Shown piece after piece: positions 48,008 through 64,000 of a DNA stretch of 64,000 bases; the stretch's first letter is position 1; every line of letters starts with the position of its first letter. The DNA is from a phage. Position numbers and translations under genes: made by a program. The notes below the pieces were generated by a model, which saw nothing but the letters and a program-made list of their open reading frames with translations, ran no database searches and was not told where the DNA came from. The stretch lies in assembly GCA_008273105.1 (NCBI GenBank), contig GCA_008273105.1_4080.1, one strand, 5' to 3'.

Positions 48008-48015
48008 AGAGTACC

Positions 48016-48201: not shown

Positions 48202-48209
48202 ATATTACC

Positions 48210-48392: not shown

Positions 48393-48402
48393 AGTATTCT
48401 CT

Positions 48403-48588: not shown

Positions 48589-48640
48589 TATAATGTAATT
48601 AGCCTTACTATATTAAAGTACTCGGTCCCTGGTGTACCTT

Positions 48641-49037: not shown

Positions 49038-49038
49038 A

Positions 49039-49466: not shown

Positions 49467-49491
49467 GTGTAGTTCTCCTTATATTCCTTCT

Positions 49492-49520
49492 ATAGTACAC
49501 CAGTACTGAAAGGATGTCAA
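49492..49520 (-). promoter_or_regulatory. sigma70-type promoter for family-C operon (TTGACA-N17-TACTAT)
   Basis: Minus strand TTGACA tcctttcagtactggtg TACTAT, then AAGGAGA SD and ATG at 49466. Confidence 0.55.
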
Positions 49521-49539
49521 GGGTTTTCTTTATGGGGTA

Positions 49540-49568
49540 AATATGATATAATGAATAAGGAGGGATTT
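49540..49568 (+). promoter_or_regulatory. promoter -10 (TATAAT) and SD of first leader-tagged cassette
   Basis: aaatatgatataatgaataaggaggg then ATG at 49569; no good -35. Confidence 0.5.
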
Positions 49569-50678
49569 ATGTTACCTTTTGGAAGAATGTTAAAGTATGG
49601 GAATGTAGCACCTGTACCCAAAAAAATAAAGAAAGTTATTGCAGGATATGATAATTTATATGTACTATATGGTGATGGATCGCTATATGGTTGTGGAATC
49701 AATAACTATCAACAGTTAAATATTACTGGAACTACTACACAAAATAAATGGGTACTGATTACAAATGGCGTTAATAATGCATGGGCTGGTGGATATAATA
49801 TTTTATATTTTAAAGAAGATAAATTTATAATGCACGGAACTAATGTCTCATTAGGTTTAGGAAATAATACAATTCCACTAGGTGGAGTAGATGTAACTTC
49901 TTCATTTCCAGATATATCTGATATTAAAATGATATCCATTGGTTTTGATTCAATGCACTATGTTAGTGCTGATGGTAAAATTGTATATGGAAGAGGTATG
50001 AACACAAATGGTTCTGTTGGTTCAGGTAGTACTTACTCACAGAGTACTTTTACTTCAGTACTGAATAATGGCACTAATCAGGTTATTGATATATTTGGTA
50101 ACGTTAATAATACAGTGCTTCTAACGTCAAATGGCGAGCTTCGTGCGTGTGGTACAAGTGCTTATGGTTCCATAGGAAATGAAACTGGTAAGTGGACATC
50201 GTTTGGTTTAAAATTATCTGGCACTAAAATAATGGGTGGTAATGCGTATAGTACGCTTGCATATACAAATGCGGGAATGTACCACACAGGGTGGCAGTTA
50301 AATGGGGAACTGGGAAATGGTTTAGATACTAACGTACAGGTATATCCATTTCAATTTAACTCTAAAACAATAGATAGCAAGATAGATAAAATTGCTAAAT
50401 CATCATCTGGGTCATATGTTAATATGTACTCAACAACAGAAGGAAAGATATATACTACAGGTGCATATGGTAAAAACGGCTCAACTACTGCATTGAATTT
50501 GTTCACCAATACACTAACACTTGAAAATTACAATCCAGATGCCGCAGCGTTGTATACGTGCACAAACTTCAGTGTTGTATATGATGGTAATGAAACTATT
50601 GCTGTAAGTGGTAGTCCTACATATGTACCAGGTGACGTTGCCGCAAATAGATGGACCACAATTCCATTACCCAAGTAA
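49569..50678 (+). CDS. MLPF-leader RCC1-like beta-propeller repeat protein 1
   Basis: Start MLPFGRMLKYGN after AAGGAGG; body has repeated G-x-L/V-Y-G-C/R-G-x-N-x-x-G-x-L/V/I-G-x-G units (YGCGINNYQQL, YGRGMNTNGSVGSG, ACGTSAYGSIGN). Confidence 0.75.
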   Translation: MLPFGRMLKYGNVAPVPKKIKKVIAGYDNLYVLYGDGSLYGCGINNYQQLNITGTTTQNKWVLITNGVNNAWAGGYNILYFKEDKFIMHGTNVSLGLGNNTIPLGGVDVTSSFPDISDIKMISIGFDSMHYVSADGKIVYGRGMNTNGSVGSGSTYSQSTFTSVLNNGTNQVIDIFGNVNNTVLLTSNGELRACGTSAYGSIGNETGKWTSFGLKLSGTKIMGGNAYSTLAYTNAGMYHTGWQLNGELGNGLDTNVQVYPFQFNSKTIDSKIDKIAKSSSGSYVNMYSTTEGKIYTTGAYGKNGSTTALNLFTNTLTLENYNPDAAALYTCTNFSVVYDGNETIAVSGSPTYVPGDVAANRWTTIPLPK

Positions 50679-50684
50679 TACGAT

Positions 50685-50714
50685 GCCAGTACTTGATACT
50701 GGCTTTCTTATTTG
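50685..50714 (+). terminator. intrinsic terminator (cassette boundary)
   Basis: gccagta cttga tactggc hairpin + tttcttatttg T-run. Confidence 0.65.
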
Positions 50715-50747
50715 TATTAAATATAGTATAATGATAAAGGAGGAACT
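50715..50747 (+). promoter_or_regulatory. cassette promoter -10 (TATAAT) and SD
   Basis: gtattaaatatagTATAATgataAAGGAGG; weak or absent -35. Confidence 0.5.
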
Positions 50748-51926
50748 ATGTTACCTTTTGGAAGAATGTTGAATTATGGAAATGAAGCACCGGGCGTACC
50801 AACACCAAAAGATTTCTTTTTGGATGTATCATCCGGCAAACCTACTATGTTGATGCTTTTGGATAACGGCGAAGTATGGGGTTGTAGTAATGATGGACAA
50901 CTATTAGGTTTAAACACTACCGCGTCAGCATACGGTAAGCCATACTTTGTTATGGAAAATGTTAAGTTAATGTTCGCGTCAGTGTGGGGGACATTACTTA
51001 TCACTAACGATAATAAAGTGAAGTACACTGGTAGACAAACCATGTTTAATGGTTCATCTAATTATTGGAGTACTTTTCAAGATTTTACAACGAAGTACAC
51101 GACTGTTGGTATTGACATAAGTACTATAGAAAAAGTTGGATTCAATACTGGTACATTATTCCTACGCACAACTAATGGTGATTTATGGGGTCATGGAAAT
51201 AACGCTAATGGTTATTTCGGAAAAGGAAATACCGTGGCGAATTACACACCAACCAAGATCAAGACTAATACATTAGATTTTTGGTTAACTAATGGGAATG
51301 CAATTGTACAAACTGGCCCTAAAGAATTCTATGCTACTGGTGATAATTATTATTATCAAATGGGTGTTACGACTACTGGTAATATAACAACATGGACACA
51401 GATTTTTAAGGACGCTACTGATGATCCTGAGTTTGAATATAATGCAATGCGAACAAGTCAAGCAACATTAATACTTTACGGTAAAGGAACTACATTCTAC
51501 GCAAGTGGGAGAAACTATATGAGTTCATGGGGTGTATCTGGAGCACCAGTGGATGTTAATACTACACTATATAAAGGTACGTTACCATTTGTACCCGGGG
51601 ATTTAACATATTTTTATGCTGGTCGAGAACAAGCATATTGGACTAACTTAATCATTGATACTAATGGAGTTCTGTACATATCTGGAACAAAAGATGGGGG
51701 TGGTGGTTCAAATGCACCTATATTTGAAGTATTACCAACCCCAAGTAGTGCAGTTGGATTCAAATGTGGTACAGCAACACGTTCTTATGCTATAATGGAT
51801 TGTACTGGCAATCAATTTATGTACGCACGTGGTACAGCTTTGTCAGACCCTGCTGGCTTTACACCAATGAGTACACCATTAAATCATACATGGACACACA
51901 TAACAGATTTTAAATTTAACCGATAA
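50748..51926 (+). CDS. MLPF-leader RCC1-like beta-propeller repeat protein 2
   Basis: MLPFGRMLNYGN leader; repeats of WGCSNDGQLLG / WGHGNNANGYFGKG type. Confidence 0.75.
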   Translation: MLPFGRMLNYGNEAPGVPTPKDFFLDVSSGKPTMLMLLDNGEVWGCSNDGQLLGLNTTASAYGKPYFVMENVKLMFASVWGTLLITNDNKVKYTGRQTMFNGSSNYWSTFQDFTTKYTTVGIDISTIEKVGFNTGTLFLRTTNGDLWGHGNNANGYFGKGNTVANYTPTKIKTNTLDFWLTNGNAIVQTGPKEFYATGDNYYYQMGVTTTGNITTWTQIFKDATDDPEFEYNAMRTSQATLILYGKGTTFYASGRNYMSSWGVSGAPVDVNTTLYKGTLPFVPGDLTYFYAGREQAYWTNLIIDTNGVLYISGTKDGGGGSNAPIFEVLPTPSSAVGFKCGTATRSYAIMDCTGNQFMYARGTALSDPAGFTPMSTPLNHTWTHITDFKFNR

Positions 51927-51932
51927 TATTAT

Positions 51933-51966
51933 GCCAGTACTTGATACTGGCATTTCTTTTTGTATT
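51933..51966 (+). terminator. intrinsic terminator (cassette boundary)
   Basis: gccagtacttgatactggc + atttctttttgtatt. Confidence 0.65.
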
Positions 51967-51997
51967 AAATATAATATAATGAATAAAGGAGGGAAAT
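51967..51997 (+). promoter_or_regulatory. cassette promoter -10 and SD
   Basis: aaatataatataatgaataAAGGAGGG. Confidence 0.5.
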
Positions 51998-53191
51998 ATG
52001 TTACCTTTTGCAAGAATGGTTAAATACGGGAATAAACAGCCTATTCCTGAACCAGTTGAGTTCACTGATGTTTTACAGCAACATTATACTAATGCTATGT
52101 ATCTACATAAGCCCACGAATACACTATACGGTTATGGTGGTAATAACTTGAGCCAATTAGGTCTAGGGAATCAATCGACAGTTTCTACTTTTACAGTACT
52201 GGCAACGCACTGTGCAGCCTTTTGGTTAGGCGTTCATGGATCATTGATGATTGACTTGGATAATAGAATATATTTCACAGGGAATACAGTAGCATTCCCC
52301 GATTATGGAGATGCAACTCCAGTTAATGGTTATTTTAGAACATGGACTGATGTTACTGCCGCATTTAACAAAATAAATATACACGCTAATTTAATCAAGA
52401 GTGTACATATAGGTGAAAGTACTAGAATATTACTACACGATGGAAGAGTCGTTGTTTGTGGTAAAAATGCAAATGCCGAATGTGGAACAGGTAACCAAAA
52501 TCCCATTCCAGTACTAACAGTTGTTACTGGTATGGGTGAAGTTTCTCAATTGGCGTGTTCATTACAGGGTACGCACTATCTCAAAACAAATAAAGAAGCA
52601 TGGTTTTGTGGTAAGGATAACTTTGGTGAAAGTGGTGGTGGGACTAGCTCATACGTTTTTACTAATAAATTAATACGAACCAACGTCGATTATATAAGTG
52701 CTACTTATGATGTTACCTGGTGGTTCACTGCCGGTAGGGTGTACTGGAGTGGTAGAAACAATTCTGGACAAGCTGGGAATGGTACTACTTCAACTACAAA
52801 CCAATTAACTACAGTTCAGAATTCACAGGTTATAGTGAATATTAGTGATGGTTTCCTGTGTCCTAGTAATATGGGTAACTCAACAATTGGTGCACCTATG
52901 GCTCAATACCCATCATATGTCAGGAGTGCAGGCATCAATACATATGGTCAAGAAGGGACGGGAAATACAACAGTAATTACTTCGTGGGGGGCGTTTTCTT
53001 TAAGTGCGATACAGGGTGGATATGACAATGTTCTTATGGCATCCAAAGACTGGTCCAGAACAATAATTATAACTAAAGATTATAAATTATATGCATGTGG
53101 GGGCTTTAACGGTTCAGGTGGTAACTTACCGGATGGTACTTCCTTAATTAAAACATTAACATTAATGCCAACGCAGTTATGGCAACAATAG
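51998..53191 (+). CDS. MLPF-leader RCC1-like beta-propeller repeat protein 3
   Basis: MLPFARMVKYGN leader; repeats YGYGGNNLSQLGLG, VCGKNANAECGTG, WSGRNNSGQAGNG. Confidence 0.75.
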   Translation: MLPFARMVKYGNKQPIPEPVEFTDVLQQHYTNAMYLHKPTNTLYGYGGNNLSQLGLGNQSTVSTFTVLATHCAAFWLGVHGSLMIDLDNRIYFTGNTVAFPDYGDATPVNGYFRTWTDVTAAFNKINIHANLIKSVHIGESTRILLHDGRVVVCGKNANAECGTGNQNPIPVLTVVTGMGEVSQLACSLQGTHYLKTNKEAWFCGKDNFGESGGGTSSYVFTNKLIRTNVDYISATYDVTWWFTAGRVYWSGRNNSGQAGNGTTSTTNQLTTVQNSQVIVNISDGFLCPSNMGNSTIGAPMAQYPSYVRSAGINTYGQEGTGNTTVITSWGAFSLSAIQGGYDNVLMASKDWSRTIIITKDYKLYACGGFNGSGGNLPDGTSLIKTLTLMPTQLWQQ

Positions 53192-53199
53192 GAGGGAAT

Positions 53200-54309
53200 A
53201 TGTTACCTTTTGGAAGAATGATTAGGTATGGAAATATTGTCCCTGGTCCTAAAAAAATAATTAAAGTTGGTGCTTCTACCCAAGGCCAATTCTTATTGAC
53301 TGATTCACATGATTTATATTACATAGGTAGAAATCAAGGTGGTGAATCTGGAAATGGTAATACCAACACGGTATCTTCATGGATATTAGTAAGTGCAGAT
53401 GTTTCTAATTTTTTCGTGGGTGATCGTACACTTGTTATTATTAAAAATGATAATACTATATGGACATCAGGTCAAACGTACTGGTTCTCATCTTCTACAA
53501 CTACTTCTTACAGTACTGTATTAGTTGAAAGGACTAGTTGGTTTACCAATGCTATACCAGTCAGTGAAATTGCTAATATTGTATGCACAAATGGTTTAAT
53601 ATTTGTACTTAGCACTAATTCAGTACTCTATGGTGCAGGAGATAATGGATATCGTGGTTCTTTGGGTATTGGTTCCTCATCAATTTACACATTAACTCAA
53701 TGTGCTACGAACGTTCGTAAAGTAATGACCAATGCGAATGATAGTATATATCTTACATTAGATAATAAGCTATATAGTTCTGGATGGAATAGTAGTGGGC
53801 AGCATGGTACGGGGAACCAAACACAAATTAACACTTGGGGATTGCGTAGTTCTGGTGTAATCGATGCAGCCATTGGTGGTAATGCATTAAATTACTATAA
53901 TGGTACATCATATTTCGTATGTGGTCAAACTCCAAACTTTCTTAGTTCAGGTACGACTACATTCCGTGCAGTTCCTTTAAGTACTTTGCCTAATAGTTCT
54001 CCGTTGTTTATGACGAATTCACCTGCCTTAAATACTGCTACACAAATGGTAATTACTAGTACATATCAGAAGGGTGTTGGGGCGAACCGTGGTTTGGGAT
54101 TAAACAATTCTCAAACTGGTGCTATATATAGTGCTACCAATTTACAATTACCCGTTGAAGTTAGTGAGATTAGGGATGTTCTTTTTAGTGATGGTTTGAC
54201 ATCGATATTAACCAAAAATGGAGATGTGTATAGTACTGGATCGTATTACGCCATTCCAGGTGCAATCGAGGATGTTGCAGTCTTTACTAAAATTGATTTA
54301 CCAAAATAA
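53200..54309 (+). CDS. MLPF-leader RCC1-like beta-propeller repeat protein 4
   Basis: Start MLPFGRMIRYGN 8 nt after stop of gene 3 (TAG overlaps AGGAGGG SD); no terminator/promoter cassette, so likely co-transcribed. Confidence 0.75.
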   Translation: MLPFGRMIRYGNIVPGPKKIIKVGASTQGQFLLTDSHDLYYIGRNQGGESGNGNTNTVSSWILVSADVSNFFVGDRTLVIIKNDNTIWTSGQTYWFSSSTTTSYSTVLVERTSWFTNAIPVSEIANIVCTNGLIFVLSTNSVLYGAGDNGYRGSLGIGSSSIYTLTQCATNVRKVMTNANDSIYLTLDNKLYSSGWNSSGQHGTGNQTQINTWGLRSSGVIDAAIGGNALNYYNGTSYFVCGQTPNFLSSGTTTFRAVPLSTLPNSSPLFMTNSPALNTATQMVITSTYQKGVGANRGLGLNNSQTGAIYSATNLQLPVEVSEIRDVLFSDGLTSILTKNGDVYSTGSYYAIPGAIEDVAVFTKIDLPK

Positions 54310-54315
54310 CATAAT

Positions 54316-54346
54316 GCCAGTACACTGTACTGGCTTTCTTATTTGT
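54316..54346 (+). terminator. intrinsic terminator (cassette boundary)
   Basis: gccagtac act gtactggc + tttcttatttg; loop differs from other copies, stem conserved. Confidence 0.65.
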
Positions 54347-54379
54347 ATTAAATATAGTATAACAAATAAAGGAGGGAAT
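54347..54379 (+). promoter_or_regulatory. cassette promoter -10 (TATAAC variant) and SD
   Basis: gtattaaatatagTATAACaaataAAGGAGGG. Confidence 0.45.
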
Positions 54380-55519
54380 ATGTTACCTTTTGCAAGAATG
54401 GTTAAGTACGGGAATATCGCACCTGAACTGATTCTACCTAAAAACAGGTTACAATGTTCTGCTGATGCCAAATTTTATTTACACACAAATGGCAATCTAT
54501 ATTGGTTTGGTTCTTCAGCATATGGACAAAGTGGTAATAGTTCATTGGACTCTTCAACTGAATGGACTCTTGTCAACTCAAATGTTACACGATATTGGGG
54601 TGGGGTACAAGGAACAATTGCTATAAAGAAAGATGGTACTATTTGGTACACTGGTAGACGTACTGTTATTCCAATACTATCTTCAAACACTAACGGCGTT
54701 TGGGTTGATATAACACAGAACTTTACTGATTTCGGTGTCAGTGCAGATGATATTGATAGTGTTGTGATATCTTCGTGTATGCGTGTATTTTTAAAAAATG
54801 GAAAGTGGTTCTACTGTGGTGCTGGTACTGGTGGTGTTTTTGGGAATGGATCAACTTCAAGCGTTTCACGATTCACCTATAGTACAATAGAAAATGTTAT
54901 CAGTGCTGGTTGTGCAATATATAGTACTGGATTAGTACTAAATGATGGTTCATATTGGTATGCAGGTAGAACGTTTGTATCAGGAACGACGACACAAAAC
55001 TTGCTCACATTTACACAAGATACTTCGATTAGTAATGCAATTAAAGCAGTCAATACAAATGAAACTTCTTATATATTTCTTAATGATGGTAATGTTAAAG
55101 TTGCATCTATTAACGACTATGGACAAGCAGGTACAGGAAATAGGTCAGTAGCCCCAATGAGTACATTAATTCCAAATTTATCATTCCAAGGAGAAGTGGA
55201 GTTGGTGGGTGAGCTTGGGACAAACCTTACCGGACCATCCTGTATAATTAATAATAATAATAAGTTATTTTCATGTGGCCTTAATTCAAATGGTCAATGT
55301 GGTATTGGTACAACTGATATGTATATAACATCATTCGCTGAAATGGATCTTACTGCATTAGAAGGTAGTAATCTTAGTAGTTTTTGTAAGAGCTATTCTT
55401 ATACGATGTTAGTTGACGAATATAATAATTTATACACATGTGGTGTACCCAATCTTACTGGAATGTCTTCAACTACTGTACCAACAAGGGTTCCTGATTC
55501 ACTTCTACCGTGGAAATAA
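54380..55519 (+). CDS. MLPF-leader RCC1-like beta-propeller repeat protein 5
   Basis: MLPFARMVKYGN leader; repeats WFGSSAYGQSGN, YCGAGTGGVFGNG, SCGLNSNGQCGIG. Confidence 0.75.
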   Translation: MLPFARMVKYGNIAPELILPKNRLQCSADAKFYLHTNGNLYWFGSSAYGQSGNSSLDSSTEWTLVNSNVTRYWGGVQGTIAIKKDGTIWYTGRRTVIPILSSNTNGVWVDITQNFTDFGVSADDIDSVVISSCMRVFLKNGKWFYCGAGTGGVFGNGSTSSVSRFTYSTIENVISAGCAIYSTGLVLNDGSYWYAGRTFVSGTTTQNLLTFTQDTSISNAIKAVNTNETSYIFLNDGNVKVASINDYGQAGTGNRSVAPMSTLIPNLSFQGEVELVGELGTNLTGPSCIINNNNKLFSCGLNSNGQCGIGTTDMYITSFAEMDLTALEGSNLSSFCKSYSYTMLVDEYNNLYTCGVPNLTGMSSTTVPTRVPDSLLPWK

Positions 55520-55525
55520 TATAAT

Positions 55526-55556
55526 GCCAGTACACTGTACTGGCTTTCTTATTTGT
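55526..55556 (+). terminator. intrinsic terminator (cassette boundary)
   Basis: gccagtacactgtactggc + T-run. Confidence 0.65.
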
Positions 55557-55590
55557 ATTAAATATAGTATAATGAATAAAGGAGGGAAAT
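55557..55590 (+). promoter_or_regulatory. cassette promoter -10 and SD
   Basis: attaaatatagTATAATgaataAAGGAGGG. Confidence 0.5.
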
Positions 55591-56739: not shown

Positions 56740-56745
56740 TTTAAT

Positions 56746-56776
56746 GCCAGTACAGAGTACTGGCTTTCTTATTTGT
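56746..56776 (+). terminator. intrinsic terminator (cassette boundary)
   Basis: gccagtac aga gtactggc + T-run. Confidence 0.65.
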
Positions 56777-56810
56777 ATTAAATATAGTATAATGAATAAA
56801 GGAGGAATTT
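56777..56810 (+). promoter_or_regulatory. cassette promoter -10 and SD
   Basis: attaaatatagTATAATgaataAAGGAGG. Confidence 0.5.
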
Positions 56811-58001: not shown

Positions 58002-58008
58002 TAATTTA

Positions 58009-58039
58009 GCCAGTACAAAGTACTGGCTTTCTTATTTGT
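58009..58039 (+). terminator. intrinsic terminator (cassette boundary)
   Basis: gccagtac aaa gtactggc + tttcttatttg. Confidence 0.65.
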
Positions 58040-58072
58040 ATTAAATATAGTATAATGAATAAAGGAGGAAGT
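58040..58072 (+). promoter_or_regulatory. cassette promoter -10 and SD
   Basis: attaaatatagTATAATgaataAAGGAGG. Confidence 0.5.
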
Positions 58073-59206
58073 ATGTTACCTTTTGGAAGAATGGTTAAGT
58101 ACGGAAATAAAAGACCATCTAATAATATCAAAAAGATTTCATGCACAACCAATAACAGTGTTTTGGTGCTCACCGAAAGTGGAGATTTGTATGGTTTTGG
58201 ATTCAATTCAGGTGGTGAACTTGGCACTGGTGCAACAACTAGTGTTACTTCAGTTATTCAAATTGACACTGGAGTTGATGATGTATGGGGTGGCAGTCTA
58301 TGTGCAATGTACAGAAAAGGCGATGAATTCTTTGGTAGCGGGAACGGTTCTTATTATGGTTCAAGTACTGTTAACTCAACCACATTTGTAAATGTAACAC
58401 ACATATTCCAAGATATAGATATTCTTAATATTAAGAAAATTAAAATGACAACAGGTTTGTTTATATTAATGCAAAACGGCAACTTATATGGATGTGGGGT
58501 AAACACCAATTGTCAATTTGGTACTGGTGAGGCAGGGAATTTTCGTTATCCTATAGCTACATTAACACAAACGGATGTTGTTGATTTTGATATTTTAGGA
58601 AACGCTAGTATAATATTAAAGACCGATGGGTACATGTACAGTGCGGGTGATAATGGTCGTGGACAACTTGGTAGTGCTGCCGCAACCACAGTTCTGGTAT
58701 ATACACAAATTAGTAAATTTCCAAATGTAACCAATTTGAATCTGTTCGGATGCACACAATCCTGTTCATTATTCAAAGATAGTGATGGTAAAACGTGGTT
58801 GAGTGGTAATAGTTATGGTATTGATTACCCAGTAGTAGCTACAACATTATTCAGTAAAGAAGCACCAGTACCTGAAGGTACATTTAGATTTATCCACACG
58901 AGATCAGGGGCAAATTCACCAGTAATATGTACACCCACTGGGTATTATGTTGCTGGTACTAACCCTTATGGTGCATATGGTATAGGTACAAATGTAACTC
59001 TGACTGCATACACTAGAATGGATTCAATGGATAATTACATATCAAATTATAATGATGTTCCTGTGTTTGATGGTTGTTTCTATGGGACATATTTTGCAGT
59101 CGGAGAACGTCTGTTTGGTGCAGGTAATGGAAATTTAGGTAATGTTCCAGGATATACTGGAACACAACGTAACTATGTAGAAATTAATTATAAAAATAAA
59201 CCTTAA
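58073..59206 (+). CDS. MLPF-leader RCC1-like beta-propeller repeat protein 8
   Basis: MLPFGRMVKYGN leader; repeats YGFGFNSGGELGTG, YGCGVNTNCQFGTG, YSAGDNGRGQLG. Confidence 0.75.
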   Translation: MLPFGRMVKYGNKRPSNNIKKISCTTNNSVLVLTESGDLYGFGFNSGGELGTGATTSVTSVIQIDTGVDDVWGGSLCAMYRKGDEFFGSGNGSYYGSSTVNSTTFVNVTHIFQDIDILNIKKIKMTTGLFILMQNGNLYGCGVNTNCQFGTGEAGNFRYPIATLTQTDVVDFDILGNASIILKTDGYMYSAGDNGRGQLGSAAATTVLVYTQISKFPNVTNLNLFGCTQSCSLFKDSDGKTWLSGNSYGIDYPVVATTLFSKEAPVPEGTFRFIHTRSGANSPVICTPTGYYVAGTNPYGAYGIGTNVTLTAYTRMDSMDNYISNYNDVPVFDGCFYGTYFAVGERLFGAGNGNLGNVPGYTGTQRNYVEINYKNKP

Positions 59207-59212
59207 TACAAT

Positions 59213-59243
59213 GCCAGTACTTGATACTGGCTTTTCTTTTTGG
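59213..59243 (+). terminator. intrinsic terminator (cassette boundary)
   Basis: gccagtacttgatactggc + ttttctttttg. Confidence 0.65.
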
Positions 59244-59276
59244 TTAAATATAGTATAATGAATAAAGGAGGGAATT
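59244..59276 (+). promoter_or_regulatory. cassette promoter -10 and SD
   Basis: gttaaatatagTATAATgaataAAGGAGGG. Confidence 0.5.
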
Positions 59277-60014
59277 ATGTTACCTTTTGCAAGAATGGTT
59301 AAGTTCGGGAATAAAATTGAATATAAGCCACATGGTGAACAATTAATCACGACAATAGGAACAACACAATTTACAGTTCCTGCTGGCGTTACCGAAATAT
59401 CAGTATGTGTTATTTCGCCGGGTGGTCAACGTGGTGCTGGTGGCGGCTTATCGTGGCGTAATAATATTCCGGTTTCTGGTGGTGAGTACTTAAGTGTTTC
59501 TCTTACACATCCCAACACTACTACAGCAGTTGAAAACGGTTTATATCGTGGAACTGAAAAACTATGTGTTAGCTTCACTGGTGAATATAGGGTTGGTGGA
59601 CTAGGTGGGAAAGCTGCTAACGCTATTAATGATGGTGGTGGTAATGGGGGCAACGCTGGTGTAAGTGGTGGTGCAGTCATTGGTGGTGGTGCTGGTGGCT
59701 ACACTGGTAAAGGTGGTAACGGAGATGCAATCACTGGTGAAAATGGTGCTGGCGGCGGCGGTGGTGGTGGTGCATTCTATAATACCTCGTTCATTGGTAC
59801 GGGTGGTGGTACTGGTATCATTGTTCAAGGTGCTAATGGTATTGGCGGTAGATACGATGGTTCATATAATGGTGGTGCTGGTAGTGGTGGTGCTGGTAAG
59901 ATGTATGGTGGTGGTGGTAGTATATGGGATAATTTTTCTTATACGGCTGCTGGTGGTGGTGCTGTGCGAATAATATGGGGACGTGGGAGATATTATCCTA
60001 ACAATTCAGTCTAA
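59277..60014 (+). CDS. MLPF-leader glycine-rich protein (non-RCC1 cargo)
   Basis: Same leader MLPFARMVKFGN fused to a Gly-rich body (GGGNGGNAGVSGG, GAGGGGGGGAF, GGAGSGGAG) unrelated to the propeller paralogs. Confidence 0.7.
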   Translation: MLPFARMVKFGNKIEYKPHGEQLITTIGTTQFTVPAGVTEISVCVISPGGQRGAGGGLSWRNNIPVSGGEYLSVSLTHPNTTTAVENGLYRGTEKLCVSFTGEYRVGGLGGKAANAINDGGGNGGNAGVSGGAVIGGGAGGYTGKGGNGDAITGENGAGGGGGGGAFYNTSFIGTGGGTGIIVQGANGIGGRYDGSYNGGAGSGGAGKMYGGGGSIWDNFSYTAAGGGAVRIIWGRGRYYPNNSV

Positions 60015-60021
60015 AATATAG

Positions 60022-60052
60022 GCCAGTACTTGATACTGGCTTTCTTATTTGT
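60022..60052 (+). terminator. intrinsic terminator (cassette boundary)
   Basis: gccagtacttgatactggc + tttcttatttg. Confidence 0.65.
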
Positions 60053-60085
60053 ATTAAATATAGTATAATGAATAAGGAGGGAATT
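60053..60085 (+). promoter_or_regulatory. cassette promoter -10 and SD
   Basis: attaaatatagTATAATgaatAAGGAGGG. Confidence 0.5.
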
Positions 60086-61228
60086 ATGTTACCTTTTGGA
60101 AGAATGGTTAAGTACGGGAATATTGCACCAGTTCCGGTAGTTCCTACAATAAAAGATTTTAAGATTGGCTTTTCGCATGAAGTGTTATTGGACAGTGCAG
60201 GTGATGCATGGGGTATTGGATACAATACAGATGGGCAGTTAGGCTTTTTGGATGCAAATACCAATTCACTAGGTGCGTGGTCTAAGATATATACTGATGT
60301 TCGATTAATTGGAGTTACTGCTAGATATACAGTGGTAGTTACTAATAATAATAGAATCCTTTACGCAGGAAATAACTTAATTTCTAGTACTACTACTCTT
60401 GGGTGGACCGATATAACTGCCAGTATGGGTCCGGTTGCGGTGGATAGCATCGATGCATTATATTGCACAGATGGTATGATGCATATTAAAACTTCAGATG
60501 GTTCTTTATATGCATATGGTCGTAACATGAACGCAAACAGTGGTGTTACTGGTGGTGTTATTAGTGTTGCAACTAAGGTTAATTTGCCTTCTGCTGTAAA
60601 TGACATGCGATATACGTTTAGTTATGGTTCAGTACTATGTCGATTGGATACGACTTCTATATACGCATGGGGACGAAACACAAATGGTGAATTAGGCCAG
60701 GGTAATACAACAGCTATCGTTACACCAAAACTATTGTCTGGTGCTTCTATTGCAATGGGTACTTCGTATAATGCTACTGCAATTGTTTCTGGTTCTGCAT
60801 CGTTAGTTACGTGTGGTGGTCAGAACAGTGGTCAGTTGGGTAATGGTATTACTACTGATGGTAATGTTTACGTATATGCTGCTAGAACATACCCTGGCGA
60901 TCTTAATACTATAAGAAGTCCAGTGGATTGTAGTACAACGTACACCTCTGCATTTATGAGTCCAGATGGTATATATTACACTGGTGCTAACCGAAGCATG
61001 TTTGGTGGTATTAGTGGTGCTGCTACCGTTGGTGTATATACTAAATGTAGTGATTTACCAATAACATATTCTAATATAATTCAGTGGGGTAGTGGTACTA
61101 TTGGTGGTGCTATATGTAGTAGTACAGAGTTATACCAATGTGGCATCGGTCGATACATTGCTGGAGATGGTGCGAGCACAACCAGGTATGGATTTAGGAA
61201 GACCCCATTACCTTGGGATGTTTATTGA
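60086..61228 (+). CDS. MLPF-leader RCC1-like beta-propeller repeat protein 10
   Basis: MLPFGRMVKYGN leader; repeats WGIGYNTDGQLG, YAYGRNMNANSG, WGRNTNGELGQG, CGGQNSGQLGNG. Confidence 0.75.
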   Translation: MLPFGRMVKYGNIAPVPVVPTIKDFKIGFSHEVLLDSAGDAWGIGYNTDGQLGFLDANTNSLGAWSKIYTDVRLIGVTARYTVVVTNNNRILYAGNNLISSTTTLGWTDITASMGPVAVDSIDALYCTDGMMHIKTSDGSLYAYGRNMNANSGVTGGVISVATKVNLPSAVNDMRYTFSYGSVLCRLDTTSIYAWGRNTNGELGQGNTTAIVTPKLLSGASIAMGTSYNATAIVSGSASLVTCGGQNSGQLGNGITTDGNVYVYAARTYPGDLNTIRSPVDCSTTYTSAFMSPDGIYYTGANRSMFGGISGAATVGVYTKCSDLPITYSNIIQWGSGTIGGAICSSTELYQCGIGRYIAGDGASTTRYGFRKTPLPWDVY

Positions 61229-61234
61229 AATAAT

Positions 61235-61268
61235 GCCAGTACTCAAGTACTGGCATTTCTTTTTGATT
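61235..61268 (+). terminator. intrinsic terminator (cassette boundary)
   Basis: gccagtac tcaa gtactggc + atttctttttg. Confidence 0.65.
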
Positions 61269-61299
61269 AAATATAGTATAATGAATAAAGGAGGGAAGT
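61269..61299 (+). promoter_or_regulatory. cassette promoter -10 and SD
   Basis: attaaatatagTATAATgaataAAGGAGGG. Confidence 0.5.
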
Positions 61300-62475
61300 A
61301 TGTTACCTTTTGCAAGAATGGTTAAGTATGGGAATATTAAACCTGCACCTTCGGGTGTATTAAAGATTAGTACATCTGTAACACATATGGGTATGTTATT
61401 TGATAGTGGTAACTTATATCTACGTGGGCGTGGTGCATATTATATGCTAGGAAATAATAGTACTGAGTATGTACAAAATGGGTGGGTACTTTGTCCATAT
61501 AAAGTTTCTAATGTTTGGTGTTTATTCGCAGGGACAATTATACTTACGACTGACGGAGAATTTTACTTAGCAGGGCAAATGAACTATCTCGGTGTATCTG
61601 CATCACCTGTTCCTGGATGGACTAATATTACATCTATATTGTCTACAATTCCAAGCCTTACTACAGTTCAAGATATAGCTTCTACCGAAACTACCGCATT
61701 TAATGGTTCTTTATTAATTCTGTTAAGTGATGGTAACTTATATGGGATAGGCCGTAATGCTGGGGGTGAATTGGGTGTTACTGGAATACAATCAACACCT
61801 ATTTTGATTAACACGGGTGTTACTTTAATCGCAGGAACACAGTCGGGTGGTGCTTTCCATTTTGTAAAAAATGGACAATATTACAGATGTGGTAATAATG
61901 CAAGTTATAACCTAGGTACAAGTTCATCTAAACTATCCACATTTACAGTAAGTACTGATATATCAGGAACAGTTATTGGTATTTCATGTACTACTGAAAC
62001 GACTTCAGTACTTACATCGAATAATGGTAATATTACAGTATATACGGCTGGAAAAAACACTGATTATTGTTTAGGAATAGGGTATGGAGACACTACGATT
62101 ATCATGAGTCCATTTAGTGCTACTCCCGCAATTAGTGGGATTATACCAGATGCTGCTTCGATGAATAACCACAGTTTGAATTATTTTATAATGGCAATGA
62201 CACAGAATGGTAAACTTTATACATGTGGTAGTGGTGTTCCTCTGGGTTGGCCTCCTTCTAGTGCATCAGAAAGATCTTCTTACCACCAAGTACAATATGA
62301 GGATATGGATATTGCTCCAGATGTTAATGCATTTGCAGTACAAGGTGGTTCTGGTGTGTTATACGCGTTAGTGGGGACTAATGAGGTGTACTGGTGTGGT
62401 AATGGGTCTATGTTTCAGGAACAGAGTCCGGGTACACAACAAGTTAAAATGAAGAAAATGATTTTACCAGAATAG
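61300..62475 (+). CDS. MLPF-leader RCC1-like beta-propeller repeat protein 11
   Basis: MLPFARMVKYGN leader; repeats YGIGRNAGGELG, RCGNNASYNLG. Confidence 0.75.
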   Translation: MLPFARMVKYGNIKPAPSGVLKISTSVTHMGMLFDSGNLYLRGRGAYYMLGNNSTEYVQNGWVLCPYKVSNVWCLFAGTIILTTDGEFYLAGQMNYLGVSASPVPGWTNITSILSTIPSLTTVQDIASTETTAFNGSLLILLSDGNLYGIGRNAGGELGVTGIQSTPILINTGVTLIAGTQSGGAFHFVKNGQYYRCGNNASYNLGTSSSKLSTFTVSTDISGTVIGISCTTETTSVLTSNNGNITVYTAGKNTDYCLGIGYGDTTIIMSPFSATPAISGIIPDAASMNNHSLNYFIMAMTQNGKLYTCGSGVPLGWPPSSASERSSYHQVQYEDMDIAPDVNAFAVQGGSGVLYALVGTNEVYWCGNGSMFQEQSPGTQQVKMKKMILPE

Positions 62476-62483
62476 GAGTGAAT

Positions 62484-63626
62484 ATGTTACCTTTTGCAAG
62501 AATGGTTAAGTACGGGAATATTATAATCCCCCTTGATATAAAAAAAGTTGATTTAACAATAAATGGTTGTATAATACTTACAAGTGATGGTAAATTATAT
62601 GCAAGTGGGACTCAATCAGCAGGTCAATTTGGATTAGGAAATAGAACAACACTTACAGTACGTACATTAATAGCCGAAAATGTGGTTAATTTTTGGTTTA
62701 GTCAGTCTGGATTAACTATTTTAAAAAATGATAGTTCATATTGGTTTAGTGGAGCAGCATATGCATATGGAGATAGTGGTAATGTTTTTATTAACATTGA
62801 TAGTTTAATCAAAGACAAATTTGACAATGCGAGCGAAATATATGTTGCACGTGATCATGCAACTGTTATTGTAAACGCCGATGGTTCAGTTTGGGTTTTA
62901 GGTTCTAATTTATATGGTATGATTGGGTTAGCAAGTACTACAACATACGCCCCTACATGGACACAAAATACAAACCTTACTGGTGTTTCTAAAATGCAAT
63001 TTGGTCATCTGAACGCATGTGGAATAAGATCGAATGGCGACGTTGTTGCGTGGGGTGAGAACAGATTCAACTGCTTCACAACTGTGGGCGGTACTGGTTA
63101 CCTGACACCAAGAGTAGTTAAGTCAAATGTGATTGATTTTTATTTAACTGCAACATCTTGTTTTATGTGGAGTGATGCTACTTCAGTTTATTTTAGTGGC
63201 TATACTGGGGACACTGGATTATTAAATTCTGCGGCTGGTAGTACCTTTCAGTCATACAATATATACAGTGTAGCTCAACCGGAAACATATGTAAGTTCAG
63301 AGTTTCGTTTTATAAAGCATACAAACTACAACTATGGTAATGCTGTTAACTTACCAGTATACGTTAAATTTAGAATTAATGGTGAAGTTTATAGTAGTGG
63401 ATATAACTTAAGTAGTAGTTTGGGGGTAAATTCCGTTTCCACCAGCGTAAAAAATACAACTTTAGTTCCAGGTGCATCAAAAATGACATCGTGGGTGGCT
63501 GGTGATACTAATGTTAAATTAGCTACTATTGATGGTAGTTTATATGGTGCAGGTAACGTACAATATATTTTAGATAAACCAAGTCAAGAAATATATCCCA
63601 CATATCAAAAATTAAATATAATATAA
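62484..63626 (+). CDS. MLPF-leader RCC1-like beta-propeller repeat protein 12
   Basis: Start MLPFARMVKYGN 8 nt after stop of gene 11 (TAGGAG overlap); no cassette, likely co-transcribed. Confidence 0.75.
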   Translation: MLPFARMVKYGNIIIPLDIKKVDLTINGCIILTSDGKLYASGTQSAGQFGLGNRTTLTVRTLIAENVVNFWFSQSGLTILKNDSSYWFSGAAYAYGDSGNVFINIDSLIKDKFDNASEIYVARDHATVIVNADGSVWVLGSNLYGMIGLASTTTYAPTWTQNTNLTGVSKMQFGHLNACGIRSNGDVVAWGENRFNCFTTVGGTGYLTPRVVKSNVIDFYLTATSCFMWSDATSVYFSGYTGDTGLLNSAAGSTFQSYNIYSVAQPETYVSSEFRFIKHTNYNYGNAVNLPVYVKFRINGEVYSSGYNLSSSLGVNSVSTSVKNTTLVPGASKMTSWVAGDTNVKLATIDGSLYGAGNVQYILDKPSQEIYPTYQKLNII

Positions 63627-63636
63627 AGGAGGGAAT

Positions 63637-64000
63637 ATGTTACCTTTTGGAAGAATGTTAAAGTACGGAAATATTAAACCAACTCTTCCTGAAATAAAGA
63701 AATTGGATGGTAGTCAATTACATGTCGGATTACTTTATAGTACAGGGAATATGTACATGCGTGGTTCTGGTTCGAACTATAAATTAGGTACAGGGGATGC
63801 TAGTGATGTATTCGGTGGTTGGGTACATGTACCCTATGAAGTTGATGATTTTTGGGCGTGTGTATCCGGTACATTAATAAAGACTGTTGATAATAAATTA
63901 TATTGTGCAGGTCTATACATGGGTGGATATTTTGGGGCTAGTGGTTCATATGTTAACTGGACTGAAGTAACTTCATTATTTGTAGGTATTGACGTGTCGC
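63637..64000 (+). CDS. MLPF-leader RCC1-like repeat protein 13 (3' end beyond window)
   Basis: Start MLPFGRMLKYGN 10 nt after stop of gene 12 with AAGGAGGG SD; frame open to window end. Confidence 0.7.
   Translation, partial: MLPFGRMLKYGNIKPTLPEIKKLDGSQLHVGLLYSTGNMYMRGSGSNYKLGTGDASDVFGGWVHVPYEVDDFWACVSGTLIKTVDNKLYCAGLYMGGYFGASGSYVNWTEVTSLFVGIDVS

Follow-up and report, generated by a model that had tools for sequence, protein, structure and literature searches.

Rows of RCC1-like genes are known from RaK2-like jumbo phages, and the array analysed here lies at the same locus as those of Asteriusvirus and its relatives (121Q_234-248, PBECO4 gp286-296, the phAPEC6 set of 11 and GAP32 gp1). Published work treats the genes as RCC1 paralogues for which a part in condensing DNA is conjectured, and the phAPEC6 and CBB papers described them as 'chromosome condensation' proteins and found members of the set in virions by mass spectrometry (MS) (PMC7247149, PMC5259590). 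With arrays annotated in dozens of Asteriusvirus genomes and discussed in both papers, the system, of which the earlier note knew no description, is a described one. The shared N-terminal peptide, the non-RCC1 cargo and the boundary modules as exchange points were not mentioned in the literature searched, and while the gene row is known the leader tag seems to be undescribed.

A short N-terminal peptide common to otherwise unrelated proteins also characterises KP32 gp38 and KP34 gp57, secondary receptor-binding proteins of branched systems, and in KP32-type phages such a docking peptide has been demonstrated experimentally to be necessary for virion incorporation and transferable to foreign cargo (Latka et al., PMC13352976). 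That peptide is about 29 aa long, carries trimeric beta-helix depolymerases and has a T4gp10-like branching domain as its partner (PMC13352976), whereas the array tag has 12 aa, a putative docking role, and cargos that are predicted monomeric propellers, lectins and Gly-rich proteins. A close parallel to the gene boundaries is provided by the PeSLs of T4-like phages, which are composite terminator/promoter motifs (Arbiol et al. 2010, PMC2839356; Comeau et al. 2014, PMC4122927). In both cases a stem-loop terminator and a promoter or promoter-like box flank variable genes and the indels of close relatives break there; however the promoters in PeSLs are of the early sigma-70 type and the genes they border are unrelated ORFans, while in the array the AT-rich box has no -35 element, the repeat continues past the Shine-Dalgarno sequence to take in the first 12 codons, and the genes between are all tagged and belong together functionally. 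The array is also reminiscent of T4 in having a Met1 peptide of roughly ten residues on unrelated cargos in a highly polymorphic locus. T4 combines a capsid-targeting sequence with a hyperplastic internal-protein locus; the signal delivers its cargo proteins into the particle and is reportedly removed from them when the prohead protease cleaves behind a Glu. In adenovirus variable fibres are attached to the penton base through the fibre tail motif FNPVYPY, again a short conserved N-terminal peptide that ties a distal binding domain of great variability to a capsid protein that is conserved, but in a eukaryotic virus with a trimeric fibre and one or few genes rather than an array of cassettes.

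The window, by which we mean the whole 64,000-nucleotide stretch analysed, belongs to a giant E. coli phage, an Asteriusvirus jumbo coliphage of the PBECO4/121Q/E9.1 type, and is 96-99% identical to E9.1 across most of the array. Thirteen plus-strand genes between 49569 and 64000 all open with MLPF[GAV]RM.[KNR][YF]GN, which confirms the shared leader described in the earlier note. A search with the leader pattern ATGTTACCNTTTGBNAGAATG tolerating up to 3 mismatches returned 13 matches, each with 0 mismatches, all on the plus strand and all within 49569-63657 (chance expectation 0.06), and a six-frame search of the window placed the dodecapeptide at the same 13 sites only. Some ORF calls begin too early at in-frame ATGs 5' of MLPF; because of the position of the Shine-Dalgarno sequence and the alignment we assigned the true starts to MLPF (Table 1). 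The asymmetry noted previously between leader and body is evident on measurement, with identities across the array of 83% for the leader peptide, 90% for the 36 nt of leader DNA and 97% for its first 21 nt, against approximately 30% (protein) and 54% (DNA) for the bodies. Intergenic invariance is a property of the full modules (87% identity), which are present at 9 of the 12 junctions.

These modules of 69-71 nt comprise a terminator hairpin, a promoter-like box and a Shine-Dalgarno sequence, the remaining three junctions (53192-53199, 62476-62483 and 63627-63636) being only 8-10 nt long with the Shine-Dalgarno sequence alone. The box would be an active promoter; a sigma-70 scan gave no enrichment (56 found against 72.5 expected). 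Conservation between the genes is that of an ordinary regulatory module doubling as a recombination substrate and not of an exotic boundary signal.

Table 1 Tagged cassettes and boundary modules of the array, with positions in the window (SD, Shine-Dalgarno sequence)
Feature	Position	Strand	Details	Basis
Degenerate promoter-like box and SD before cassette A	49537..49568	+	no hairpin; box GTAAATATGATATAATG, 3 mismatches; AAGGAGGG ahead of ATG	
Cassette A, tagged RCC1-like propeller	49569..50678	+	369 aa; MLPFGRMLKYGN	ORF, Pfam, leader search, alignment
Boundary module A/B	50679..50747	+	hairpin 50685-50703 with T-run, box 50717-50733, SD	
Cassette B, tagged RCC1-like propeller	50748..51926	+	392 aa	ORF, Pfam, leader search, alignment
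Boundary module B/C	51927..51997	+	hairpin 51931-51953, box 51965-51981, SD	
Cassette C, tagged RCC1-like propeller	51998..53191	+	397 aa; allele far from its E9.1 counterpart (dS 0.79)	ORF, Pfam, leader search
Cassette D, tagged RCC1-like propeller	53200..54309	+	369 aa; 8 nt after C, SD without hairpin or box	RCC1-like by multiple alignment, outside Pfam set
Boundary module D/E	54310..54379	+	hairpin 54316-54334, box 54348-54364, SD	
Cassette E, tagged RCC1-like propeller	54380..55519	+	379 aa	RCC1-like by multiple alignment, outside Pfam set
Boundary module E/F	55520..55590	+	hairpin 55526-55544, box 55558-55574, SD	
Cassette F, tagged RCC1-like propeller	55591..56739	+	382 aa	ORF, Pfam, leader search, alignment
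Boundary module F/G	56740..56810	+	hairpin 56746-56764, box 56778-56794, SD	
Cassette G, tagged RCC1-like propeller	56811..58001	+	396 aa	ORF, Pfam, leader search, alignment
Boundary module G/H	58002..58072	+	hairpin 58008-58028, box 58041-58057, SD; left copy of the ~104-bp repeat bounding the cassette H indel	
Cassette H, tagged RCC1-like propeller	58073..59206	+	377 aa	Pfam, AlphaFold2 model
Boundary module H/I	59207..59276	+	hairpin 59213-59231, box 59244-59260, SD; right copy of the same repeat	
Cassette I, tagged Gly-rich protein	59277..60014	+	245 aa; MLPFARMVKFGN	phrog_4474, PF21722-like family
Boundary module I/J	60015..60085	+	hairpin 60020-60042, box 60054-60070, SD	
Cassette J, tagged RCC1-like propeller	60086..61228	+	380 aa	ORF, Pfam, leader search, alignment
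Boundary module J/K	61229..61299	+	hairpin 61232-61257, box 61267-61283, SD	
Cassette K, tagged RCC1-like propeller	61300..62475	+	391 aa; protein 100% identical to E9.1	Pfam
Cassette L, tagged RCC1-like propeller	62484..63626	+	380 aa; 8 nt after K	Pfam, leader search
Cassette M, partial	63637..64000	+	121 aa in the window, 389 aa in relatives	leader search, relatives

Twelve bodies are RCC1-like seven-bladed beta-propellers and one is Gly-rich, in agreement with the types assigned previously, although only 11 propellers are complete in the window because the thirteenth gene runs off its end. Profile search and structure prediction both bear out the propeller assignment: each of the nine RCC1-type bodies run against Pfam matched PF25390, PF00415 or PF13540, and an AlphaFold2 model of the cassette H protein gave a confident propeller (pTM 0.85) with a TM-score of 0.78 to UVR8/RCC1. 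The 11 complete propellers have net charges of -4 to +4, few basic residues and an S+T+N content of 27-31%, compared with 20% S+T+N in the Gly-rich protein. The latter falls into phrog_4474, its homologues contain PF21722, and its fold matches the Pam3 fibre along with viral proteins annotated as tail fibre, minor tail protein or baseplate component.

The tag is not confined to Asteriusvirus and is also found in Mimasvirus GAP32 and CBB, Eneladusvirus BF, Xanthomonas phage XaC1 and Salmonella phage Munch, with a wider consensus of M-[LIF]-P-[FI]-x-[RKI]-hydrophobic-x-x-Y-[GA]-N. It heads at least six cargo classes (RCC1, Kelch, Laminin_G_3/ConA-like lectin, Gly_rich_2, phrog_6011 and an unclassified CBB_536/537 type), and is conserved as a peptide across RaK2-like genera, independently of cargo. 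A second dialect exists in the rV5-like Vequintavirinae, where the same cargo families share another start, M[LIF]E[LM][LM], which opens RCC1-like propellers (W70_237-239, EspYZU15, F1M1E, POP15) and Gly-rich proteins (PVP-SE1 gp19 and metagenomic relatives). Its detail tracks genus, MFEM opening both cargo types in Seunavirus, and in the approximately 105 kb scanned it opens only those cargo genes and one spanin-like ORF. In RaK2 there are tailspike classes that share two other short N-termini, and in P0003, a metagenomic relative, the RCC1 repeats are preceded by a long N-terminal extension that is not RCC1.

Published virion MS datasets detect members of the family. In phAPEC6 eight of ten annotated tagged genes were detected compared with 54 of 541 other genes (P = 6e-7), the Gly-rich cassette being unannotated there and outside this set, and among the nine tagged genes found in 43 kb scanned of CBB seven were detected compared with 48 of 545 others (P = 2e-6). 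This amounts to a strong enrichment of tagged proteins in virion proteomes with an odds ratio of about 36. The detected proteins include the phAPEC6 orthologues of cassettes K (gp006) and M (gp010), GAP32 gp1, W70_237-239 and at least two JP4 proteins (JP4_581, JP4_577) that have the tag in their listed sequences; gp002 and gp550 of phAPEC6 and two tagged CBB Kelch proteins were not detected. Coverage of the phAPEC6 members was low, at 1-5 peptides each. Two peptides from CBB virions, LFEYANVIIPPNYK (CBB_536 residues 7-20) and YANVIVEYATK (CBB_548 residues 10-20), come from inside the tag, so that residues 7-20, at the least, are retained in the mature protein; as these peptides start after a tryptic site residues 1-6 may be lost. 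The possibility entertained in the earlier note that these are structural proteins of a known family with a known leader domain applies in its first part, as they are known virion-associated proteins, while the leader matches no known domain searched.

We look on the locus as a set of address-tagged exchangeable binding modules with a virion-docking tag, a reading to which as a whole we give an even chance. Each gene would be a two-part cassette consisting of a 12-residue N-terminal address tag and a small, probably monomeric, beta-rich binding domain, either RCC1-like propeller or Gly-rich. The tag would bring the protein into the phage particle whatever its cargo by docking onto a putative conserved virion protein, and that it is a virion-incorporation signal we consider probable. 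From its correlation with virion presence we infer that the tag causes incorporation. The cargo would bind ligands. Display of the modules outside the particle as accessory adhesins is a tentative suggestion, somewhat short of evenly likely, for which the unexplained hair-like fibres or decorations of phAPEC6 and CBB would be candidate sites. As a rule receptor-binding proteins form trimers and have larger anchor domains, unlike the tagged proteins here, which are predicted to be monomeric propellers.

Were the tag instead to work like the T4 capsid-targeting sequence, it would send the proteins to the prohead as inner-body or internal proteins, co-packed with DNA and perhaps injected, with cargo such as tight-binding inhibitors of host defence and an array comparable to the T-even hyperplastic internal-protein locus. 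A short Met1-starting peptide common to unrelated cargos, a hypervariable locus and virion association at modest abundance would all fit, and RCC1-like propellers are able to inhibit other proteins by binding them very tightly, BLIP-II (3qhy_B) being among the fold matches of the cassette H model. A 40-kDa folded propeller would however have to unfold to traverse the tail tube, and there is no conserved Glu or other cleavage motif after the tag in the tagged proteins, whose tag-internal peptides occur in mature CBB virions whereas the T4 signal is removed. Their near-neutral charge is unlike that of DNA-associated internal proteins, and the lectin, Kelch and Gly-rich folds resemble those of viral proteins annotated as tail fibre or baseplate component. 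Although phAPEC6 has an inner body in which its authors suggested RCC1-like proteins (PMC7247149), we regard an internal location as unlikely. The same paper speculated that the proteins regulate chromosome condensation, compacting or organising DNA, whether that of the phage inside the head or that of the host in its nucleoid, and this was repeated in PMC11370258. Likeness to eukaryotic RCC1 in sequence and fold is confined to the propeller scaffold, with UVR8, a plant photoreceptor, and not RCC1 as the top structural match, and the fold is generic since more than 135,000 proteins match its profile. With a net charge around zero, and with lectin, Kelch and Gly-rich domains, all unconnected with DNA, behind the same tag at the same locus, nothing supports the name 'DNA condensation' proteins, and such a role is highly improbable.

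The leader could also lack any function as a peptide and be a by-product of translation initiation, of pairing between Shine-Dalgarno sequence and leader, or of gene conversion at the boundary repeats. Its codons 1-7 are nearly identical in the 13 copies while the bodies use those codons for the same residues in 31-74% of cases; these codons are frozen at the nucleotide level in this genus, indicating that gene conversion is acting, which could exaggerate the apparent leader conservation inside the window. Recombination breakpoints also fall within the leader, differences at residue 5 among orthologous cassettes fit conversion tracts, and the Shine-Dalgarno AAAGG can pair with leader CCUUU. 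Folding of the Shine-Dalgarno-plus-leader RNA is ordinary, however (z = 0.45), and the residues are kept despite synonymous differences in Munch, CBB, BF, GAP32 and XaC1 (CCA/CCT/CCG, AGA/AGG/CGT and GGN in Munch and CBB). The tag is moreover retained on a lone propeller gene, GAP32_001, the sole RCC1-like gene of its genome, and on translationally coupled (overlapping) genes of relatives that have no intergenic module, while rV5-like phages share a different peptide on the same cargo families, all of which makes a constraint on DNA or RNA very unlikely as the explanation. That the leader is an N-terminal 'velcro' strand closing the last propeller blade is scarcely credible: YGN does resemble the (Y/W)G.N element of RCC1 repeats, but residues 1-14 lie unstructured outside the propeller in the AlphaFold2 model (pLDDT < 50) and the same peptide opens proteins of other folds. 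The leader behaves as the targeting or boundary element envisaged in the earlier note, whose interpretation overall is partly supported.

For the exchangeable modules that we propose, most cassettes would be their own transcription unit, closed by an intrinsic terminator and reopened by the promoter-like box and a strong Shine-Dalgarno sequence, and the repeat of about 100 bp (hairpin, box, Shine-Dalgarno, leader) would serve as a homologous recombination site at which whole cassettes are added, removed or swapped. Exchange within a genome and between co-infecting relatives would leave each phage with its own set. A variable repertoire had been suspected, and among eight close relatives no fewer than 20 cassette types occur, whole cassettes having been gained or lost and alleles swapped; order and content differ in all eight arrays. 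Aligned to E9.1, G17 and SP27 the window breaks at modules only; cassette H is missing from E9.1 and the other seven arrays compared, and cassette L is missing from E9.1 in an indel bounded solely by Shine-Dalgarno sequence and leader. Fast adaptive evolution of a 'diversifying cargo' is contradicted by dN/dS values of 0.07-0.48 in orthologous cassettes, a further pair giving 1.03 on almost no substitutions (dN = dS = 0.006). Cassette diversity is a product of old paralogy and cassette exchange, and dS spans 0 to more than 1 among the cassettes of a single phage pair.

Thirteen consecutive genes had been described as opening with one shared dodecapeptide, and this was borne out when the 64-kb window was scanned with the pattern ATGTTACCNTTTGBNAGAATG, which gave 13 matches, all on the plus strand between 49569 and 63657 and without a mismatch (0.06 expected by chance), while a six-frame peptide search confined ML[PS]F.RM..[YF]GN to the same 13 sites. 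We refer to these genes in window order as cassettes A to M, to the 12-residue N-terminal peptide as the leader or tag and to the rest of each protein as its body or cargo. For six cassettes the mechanical ORF starts further 5', and the true start was placed at the MLPF of the leader because of the alignment of the 13 junctions and a strong AAAGGAGG site 6-8 nt before it. Gene callers often pick such an upstream in-frame ATG (here ahead of cassettes A, E, H and J), so that the promoter and hairpin module is translated, and in the supplement of PMC12648861 'MFIEIMPVQSTGFLICIKYSIMNKGGN' is wrongly set before the MLPF of JP4_581. As a result of such start calls, public protein records of the family carry spurious N-terminal extensions that mask the tag.

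Positions of the features in the window
Feature	Strand	Position (start or range)	Further 5' mechanical ORF start	Remark
Cassette A	+	49569	49551	
Cassette B	+	50748		
Cassette C	+	51998		
Cassette D	+	53200	53179	
Cassette E	+	54380	54218	
Cassette F	+	55591		
Cassette G	+	56811		
Cassette H	+	58073	58055	Modelled propeller
Cassette I	+	59277		Gly-rich protein
Cassette J	+	60086	60068	
Cassette K	+	61300		
Cassette L	+	62484	62478	
Cassette M	+	63637		Gene exits the window
Leader codon 5		49581-49583, 55603-55605 (examples)		GGA/GCA/GTA
Possible Shine-Dalgarno/leader pairing		55578-55604 and equivalent junctions		One predicted fold
Tiny-gene array	-	44658-49466		~22 paralogous genes, 59-81 aa
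Head-to-tail ORFs	-	18156-24298		~30, often overlapping, 70-90 aa
Region poor in long ORFs		~15.5-46 kb		Six ORFs of >=150 aa

The earlier note had also set a conserved leader against diverged bodies, and the two differ accordingly: the leaders are 83% identical as peptide, 90% as DNA (36 nt) and 97% over the first 21 nt, whereas the propeller bodies are ~30% identical as protein (each 21-25% when scored against the reference of the multiple alignment) and 54% as DNA. Codons 1-7 are the same in all 13 leaders save the middle base of codon 5, which encodes G, A or V here and T, S or P in relatives, and the bodies in the window use those codons 31-74% of the time, which argues for local homogenisation by gene conversion on top of selection at the peptide level. 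Leader residue 5 differs between orthologous cassettes of different phages; the pattern suggests gene-conversion tracts that may end inside the leader, with residue 5 unconstrained.

Intergenic DNA, previously taken to be almost invariant, is so in nine full modules (87% identical), but the C/D, K/L and L/M junctions are only 8-10 nt long and carry no module. Each of the nine junctions, 69-71 nt in length, runs from the stop codon through a GC-rich hairpin of 8-11 bp (GCCAGTAC-loop-GTACTGGC) with a T-run to the box TTGTATTAAATATAGTATAATG, then AATAAAGGAGGGA and the ATG. There are 18 terminator-like sites where 7.1 were expected, and the window has 12 copies of the conserved box TTAAATATAGTATAATG instead of an expected 2.1, with 11 of the 12 in the array (one for each of the nine full modules, one that is degenerate and precedes cassette A, and one within the 3' end of cassette L). 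The box contains a good -10 element and no -35, and a sigma-70 scan gave no enrichment (56 versus 72.5 expected), so we term it promoter-like only; it could be a site for a phage-directed polymerase. Hairpins are the dominant RNA structure of the module. Since Rfam gave no match to the array and the RNA of the Shine-Dalgarno site and leader folds no better than shuffles, we abandoned the idea of the leader as a structured RNA. An AAAGG(AGG) Shine-Dalgarno may pair with the CCUUU of leader codons 3-4, and the ribosome-binding site could be occluded in this way; such pairing is not general, as the leaders of Salmonella phage Munch lack the complementarity.

The array is 96-99% identical to that of Escherichia phage vB_EcoM_E9.1 and is matched by 37 Asteriusvirus-type jumbo phages including PBECO4, 121Q, SP27, phAPEC6 and G17. 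Typing of all tagged cassettes of eight arrays at >=60% identity gave at least 20 types, and in this comparison of related genomes, which the earlier note had proposed, cassette content varies through gains, losses, translocations and truncated copies.

Order of cassette types in eight arrays (tr, truncated, <200 aa)
Array	Order
Window	A B C D E F G H I J K L M
E9.1	A B C D E F G I J K M
SHEFM2K	A B C D E F G N(tr) J O M
SP27	B C D E F G I J K O A M
PBECO4	C D E F G N(tr) J P Q
121Q	F E D E G I F J K(tr) O A
G17	R C D S F E G I K L O M
phAPEC6	F T E D C S G I J K O A M

The DNA alignments between the window and E9.1 (49401-58112 and 59213-62523) overlap by 104 bp in E9.1. Those 104 bp run exactly from the hairpin to leader codon 13, so cassette H is an indel with the repeated module at its borders. 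The indel of cassette L is bounded by the Shine-Dalgarno site and leader only, and in the comparisons with G17 and SP27 all breakpoints fall at modules too. Indel and replacement breakpoints lying at motifs in close relatives (E9.1, G17, SP27) recall the promoter-early stem-loop (PeSL), in which a stem-loop terminator and promoter flank variable genes, although here the hairpin and T-run are joined to a box that is promoter-like without a -35; the PeSL idea of regulatory repeats as shuffling points is hereby extended to a repeat that runs into coding sequence. Compared with E9.1, cassettes A, E, G, I, J and K of the window have a dS of ~0 and cassette C one of 0.79, and against other phages dS reaches values above 1, with dN/dS of 0.07-0.48 in informative pairs. 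This range speaks against the diversifying cargo of the earlier note where that means rapid adaptive sequence change, and against adaptive hypermutation or diversification in the style of a diversity-generating retroelement. The picture would rather be one of purifying selection on working proteins together with replacement of whole cassettes by diverged alleles, and the interpretation of the array as a leader-tagged exchangeable repertoire is supported in part.

With regard to the cargo, twelve propellers had been counted; the bodies are indeed RCC1-like, but only eleven are complete in the window. All nine propeller bodies submitted to Pfam match PF25390 (E 4e-13 to 2e-33) with scores of 50-117 bits that lie below its 150-bit cut-off, and most also match PF00415 or PF13540, the repeat families being above their cut-offs in most proteins; the other two complete propellers are RCC1-like by alignment with the nine. 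The AlphaFold2 model of cassette H, the one propeller modelled, is a seven-bladed beta-propeller (pTM 0.85) and was matched by Foldseek to UVR8 (E 7e-23, TM 0.78), RCC1, HERC2 and RPGR, so that profile search and structure prediction agree with the proposed repeats and, for cassette H, with the proposed fold. Residues 1-14 of this model have a pLDDT below 50 and lie outside the propeller, which rules out the leader as a velcro strand closing the ring. A profile built from the paralogue alignment found 135,727 matches in 1.84 billion representatives, with giant multi-RCC1 proteins on top; with more than 135,000 matching proteins the RCC1-like fold is generic, and the search was uninformative on the tag. 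Word-indexed homologue searches returned few propeller relatives (8 for cassette H, 2 for W70_238), and tag diversity was consequently read from phage records. In P0003, a metagenomic relative, the RCC1 repeats are preceded by a long N-terminal extension of non-RCC1 sequence.

Cassette I encodes a protein of 245 aa with 29% Gly that matches phrog_4474 (1e-67); it has no Pfam match of its own at E<=1, and homologues including Munch_544 and P0046 pass the cut-off of PF21722 (Gly_rich_2). Its fold search returned viral 'glycine-rich domain' proteins (E 2e-14), and the domain resembles the cyanophage Pam3 fibre, a tail-tip protein of Bxb1 and viral proteins that bear the names tail fibre, minor tail protein or baseplate component, the structural match to the Pam3 fibre being of high probability with a TM of only 0.30 and therefore used as a hint only. 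Against PDB sequences the family gave nothing beyond one chance galectin match. Net charge of the cassette proteins ranges from -4 to +4 and there is no basic tail, Ser+Thr+Asn make up 27-31% of the eleven complete propellers versus 20% of the Gly-rich protein, and models and fold search give each cargo as a single domain, either propeller or Gly-rich, and reveal neither a beta-helix nor a trimerisation helix.

The leader is also found in phages of distant RaK2-like genera, as MLPFSRIIQYGN and MLPFARIFRYGD in GAP32, MLPFPIISN. and MLPFARIVEYGN in Serratia phage BF, MFPIPIISKYGN in Xanthomonas phage XaC1, MIPF[ATSP][RK][IL]..Y[GA]N in twelve genes of Munch and MLPF[PTAS][RI]...Y[GA]N in nine genes of Pectobacterium phage CBB. 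GAP32_001, the lone propeller gene of GAP32, has the tag, and an IMG/VR scan with the tag DNA pattern returned the isolates 121Q, BF, CBB and GAP32 only. Tagged genes of Munch overlap or nearly abut their upstream neighbour, without the intergenic module. Paralogues of Munch and of CBB differ synonymously in their tag codons and keep the residues constant, which indicates selection on the tag peptide; judged by these codons, the leader is a peptide under selection and not a DNA repeat alone. Across these phages the tag occurs on at least six kinds of protein, and it is independent of the cargo. The linear records of GAP32, BF, XaC1 and CBB have the tagged genes at their extreme end, where in CBB they directly adjoin the 22-kb terminal repeat.

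Kinds of protein bearing the tag in RaK2-like phages
Cargo	Family or examples
RCC1 propellers	phrog_4219
Kelch propellers	CBB_550, 552, 554
Laminin_G_3 / ConA-like lectins	CBB_548, CBB_551, Munch_534
Gly_rich_2	cassette I, Munch_544
'Virion structural protein' (phrog_6011)	GAP32_002, BF gp372, Munch_540; by the record's similarity notes CBB_549, CBB_553
Unclassified type	CBB_536, CBB_537

Outside the RaK2-like group the Gly-rich homologues start with MLELLA, MIELLA, MLEMLTVG or MFEMMLA. The rV5-like phage W70 has three RCC1-like proteins verified in the virion by MS with 141-233 spectra (PMC11370258); these fall in the same PHROG as the window propellers and start with MLEMLNLG, MLEMLNLS and MLEMMNLG. 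Other Vequintavirinae propellers begin MFEMLLGGKAP (EspYZU15), MIELMMTGGKVP and MIELMLAGGKTP (F1M1E) and MFELMMSGGKVP (POP15), and in Seunavirus MFEM opens both a propeller (EspYZU15) and a Gly-rich protein (PVP-SE1 gp19). In ~105 kb scanned, M[LIF]E[LMF][LMIF] at the start of ORFs of >=100 aa was limited to these genes and one spanin-like gene. Most alignments of a W70 propeller with those of the jumbo phages start after the tag, at query residues 9-31. The same cargo families thus bear different tags in RaK2-like and rV5-like phages, so the tag tracks the phage lineage and not the cargo, as would be expected of an address co-evolving with a lineage-specific docking site. On a metagenomic phage contig (L003, Logan ERR11507142_42) two tandem Gly-rich genes at 7879-9746, starting MLELLA.. 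and MIELLA.., are followed immediately by a spanin-like pair and by the genes for terminase, portal, protease and capsid; MLEFM, perhaps by chance, opens the spanin-like gene as well, and the neighbourhood of the Gly-rich homologue gave no pointer to a virion location.

Published proteomes link the tagged proteins to the virion. In the phAPEC6 virion gp003, 005, 006, 007, 009, 010, 549 and 551 were detected (PMC7247149), and mapping of these numbers onto the leader-tagged cassettes places 8 of the 10 annotated tagged genes among the 62 of 551 detected by MS (odds ratio 36, P = 6e-7). The same holds for 7 of the 9 tagged genes of CBB (43 kb scanned) among 55 detected of 554 (odds ratio 36, P = 2e-6), with 2-8 unique peptides and 9.5-50.7% coverage, and the JP4 virion LC-MS/MS table, which gives proteins rather than N-terminal peptides, contains at least two with the tag in their listed sequence. 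Two peptides in the CBB table begin within the tag, namely LFEYANVIIPPNYK (CBB_536 residues 7-20) and YANVIVEYATK (CBB_548 residues 10-20); both follow a tryptic site, limiting the evidence of retention to the second half of the tag. As this half is present in mature particles the tag is not cleaved off whole, and no conserved Glu or other cleavage motif was found after it; the question of leader cleavage raised by the earlier note is thereby answered in part, from residue 7 onwards. The phAPEC6 record (MK817115) carries cassettes T and E at both ends and has 352,598 bp versus 350,175 bp in the paper, probably a redundancy of circular assembly. Cassettes D and G are unannotated in it and I only partly annotated, which put them beyond the reach of the published MS search.

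The array, the fold and the virion association have been annotated and published before and are not new, and the system is undescribed, as had been supposed, apparently only with respect to the tag: we found no mention of the shared N-terminus in the papers on these arrays that could be searched. Records of relatives name the genes 'regulator of chromosome condensation' or 'putative DNA condensation protein', eleven RCC1-like proteins were counted in phAPEC6 and suggested to be DNA organisers in the inner body (PMC7247149), and a 2026 genome paper still treats them as chromosome-condensation regulators, among the most divergent proteins between same-species phages (PMC13070987). The CBB authors reported multi-copy homologues in 121Q and PBECO4, GAP32 gp1 as a structural protein and one cluster as a source of extra structural proteins (PMC5259590), a cluster that we find to be fully tagged. 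A role in DNA condensation was rejected as improbable on indirect evidence that also speaks against a function like that of RCC1, a chromatin-bound Ran exchange factor: the near-neutral charge, the lack of a basic tail and a best fold match to UVR8 rather than RCC1; the annotation derives solely from the name of the fold.

Taken by their predicted folds, the propellers, ConA-like lectins and Gly-rich domain look like a collection of ligand-binding modules. We favour an explanation in which the tag would dock displayed binding modules onto the virion, on account of the kinds of cargo, the hair-like fibres on tail and capsid and the collar decorations that are unexplained in phAPEC6 and CBB (PMC7247149, PMC5259590), and known docking peptides. 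Short N-terminal docking peptides are an established mounting route for variable virion proteins: the second receptor-binding protein of KP32 loses its function when residues 1-29 are deleted, and its docking peptide brings a foreign enzyme into the particle (PMC13352976), and in phiKp24 the N-terminal parts of tail fibres are assigned to docking (PMC9700779). The tag is likewise a short conserved N-terminus on otherwise diverse virion proteins, although its cargo is not a trimeric tailspike or depolymerase, and for the KP32-type partner with a T4gp10-like branching domain the window holds no candidate. The tailspikes of RaK2 (JQ513383, 28455-49683) form two classes by common short N-termini (M.N.LIQPKGSVSKE in gp526, 527, 529 and 530, MSLSNLS.SN in gp531-534), and the MLPF-type tag is absent from that 50-kb stretch.

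The main rival, drawn by analogy, would make the tag a capsid-targeting signal for internal proteins of the kind found in T4, where the prohead protease cuts the signal off at a conserved position and the cargo lies inside the capsid. A peptide at Met1 common to unrelated cargo in a polymorphic, hypervariable locus and an inner body that is unexplained would suit such a signal, but tag residues 7-20 and 10-20 are retained in mature CBB virions, no conserved cleavage motif is present, and the neutral charge and the kinds of fold also tell against it. We regard the tag as probably a virion-incorporation signal; display of the cargo outside the particle is a possibility somewhat short of even, an internal location is unlikely, and the docking explanation as a whole stands in the balance. 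If the tag is an incorporation signal, dozens of 'chromosome condensation' annotations are wrong, the fibres and decorations still unassigned in phAPEC6, 121Q and CBB gain concrete candidates in the tagged proteins, the genes' being the most variable between same-species phages is accounted for, and a very small handle is available to load foreign proteins onto jumbo-phage virions. What is new here is a testable idea of how proteins reach the particle, based on a cargo-independent and virion-retained tag that comes in two lineage versions and is carried by most of the polymorphic virion set. More tentatively, docking could belong to a general plug-in system of RaK2-like and, in a second dialect, rV5-like phages, in which an address tag of ~12 residues mounts any small binding domain through one conserved dock, giving particles with mixed exchangeable monomeric adhesins (propellers, lectins, Gly-rich) that are maybe the basis of the 'hairy' fibres; if true, this would provide phage display with a natural scaffold and host-range engineering with a new route.

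Elsewhere in the window no tRNA genes were found, and the head-to-tail ORFs on the minus strand lie in a region whose AT skew is strongly negative (about -0.2). The tiny-gene array is a second tandem array, divergent from the tagged one; its products share an N-terminus like M(N/H)KE(H)KEFY and a C-terminus like ..LLLIYRY or ..VLKLISI, and it is also present in relatives, being annotated phrog_11711 in SHEFM2K.
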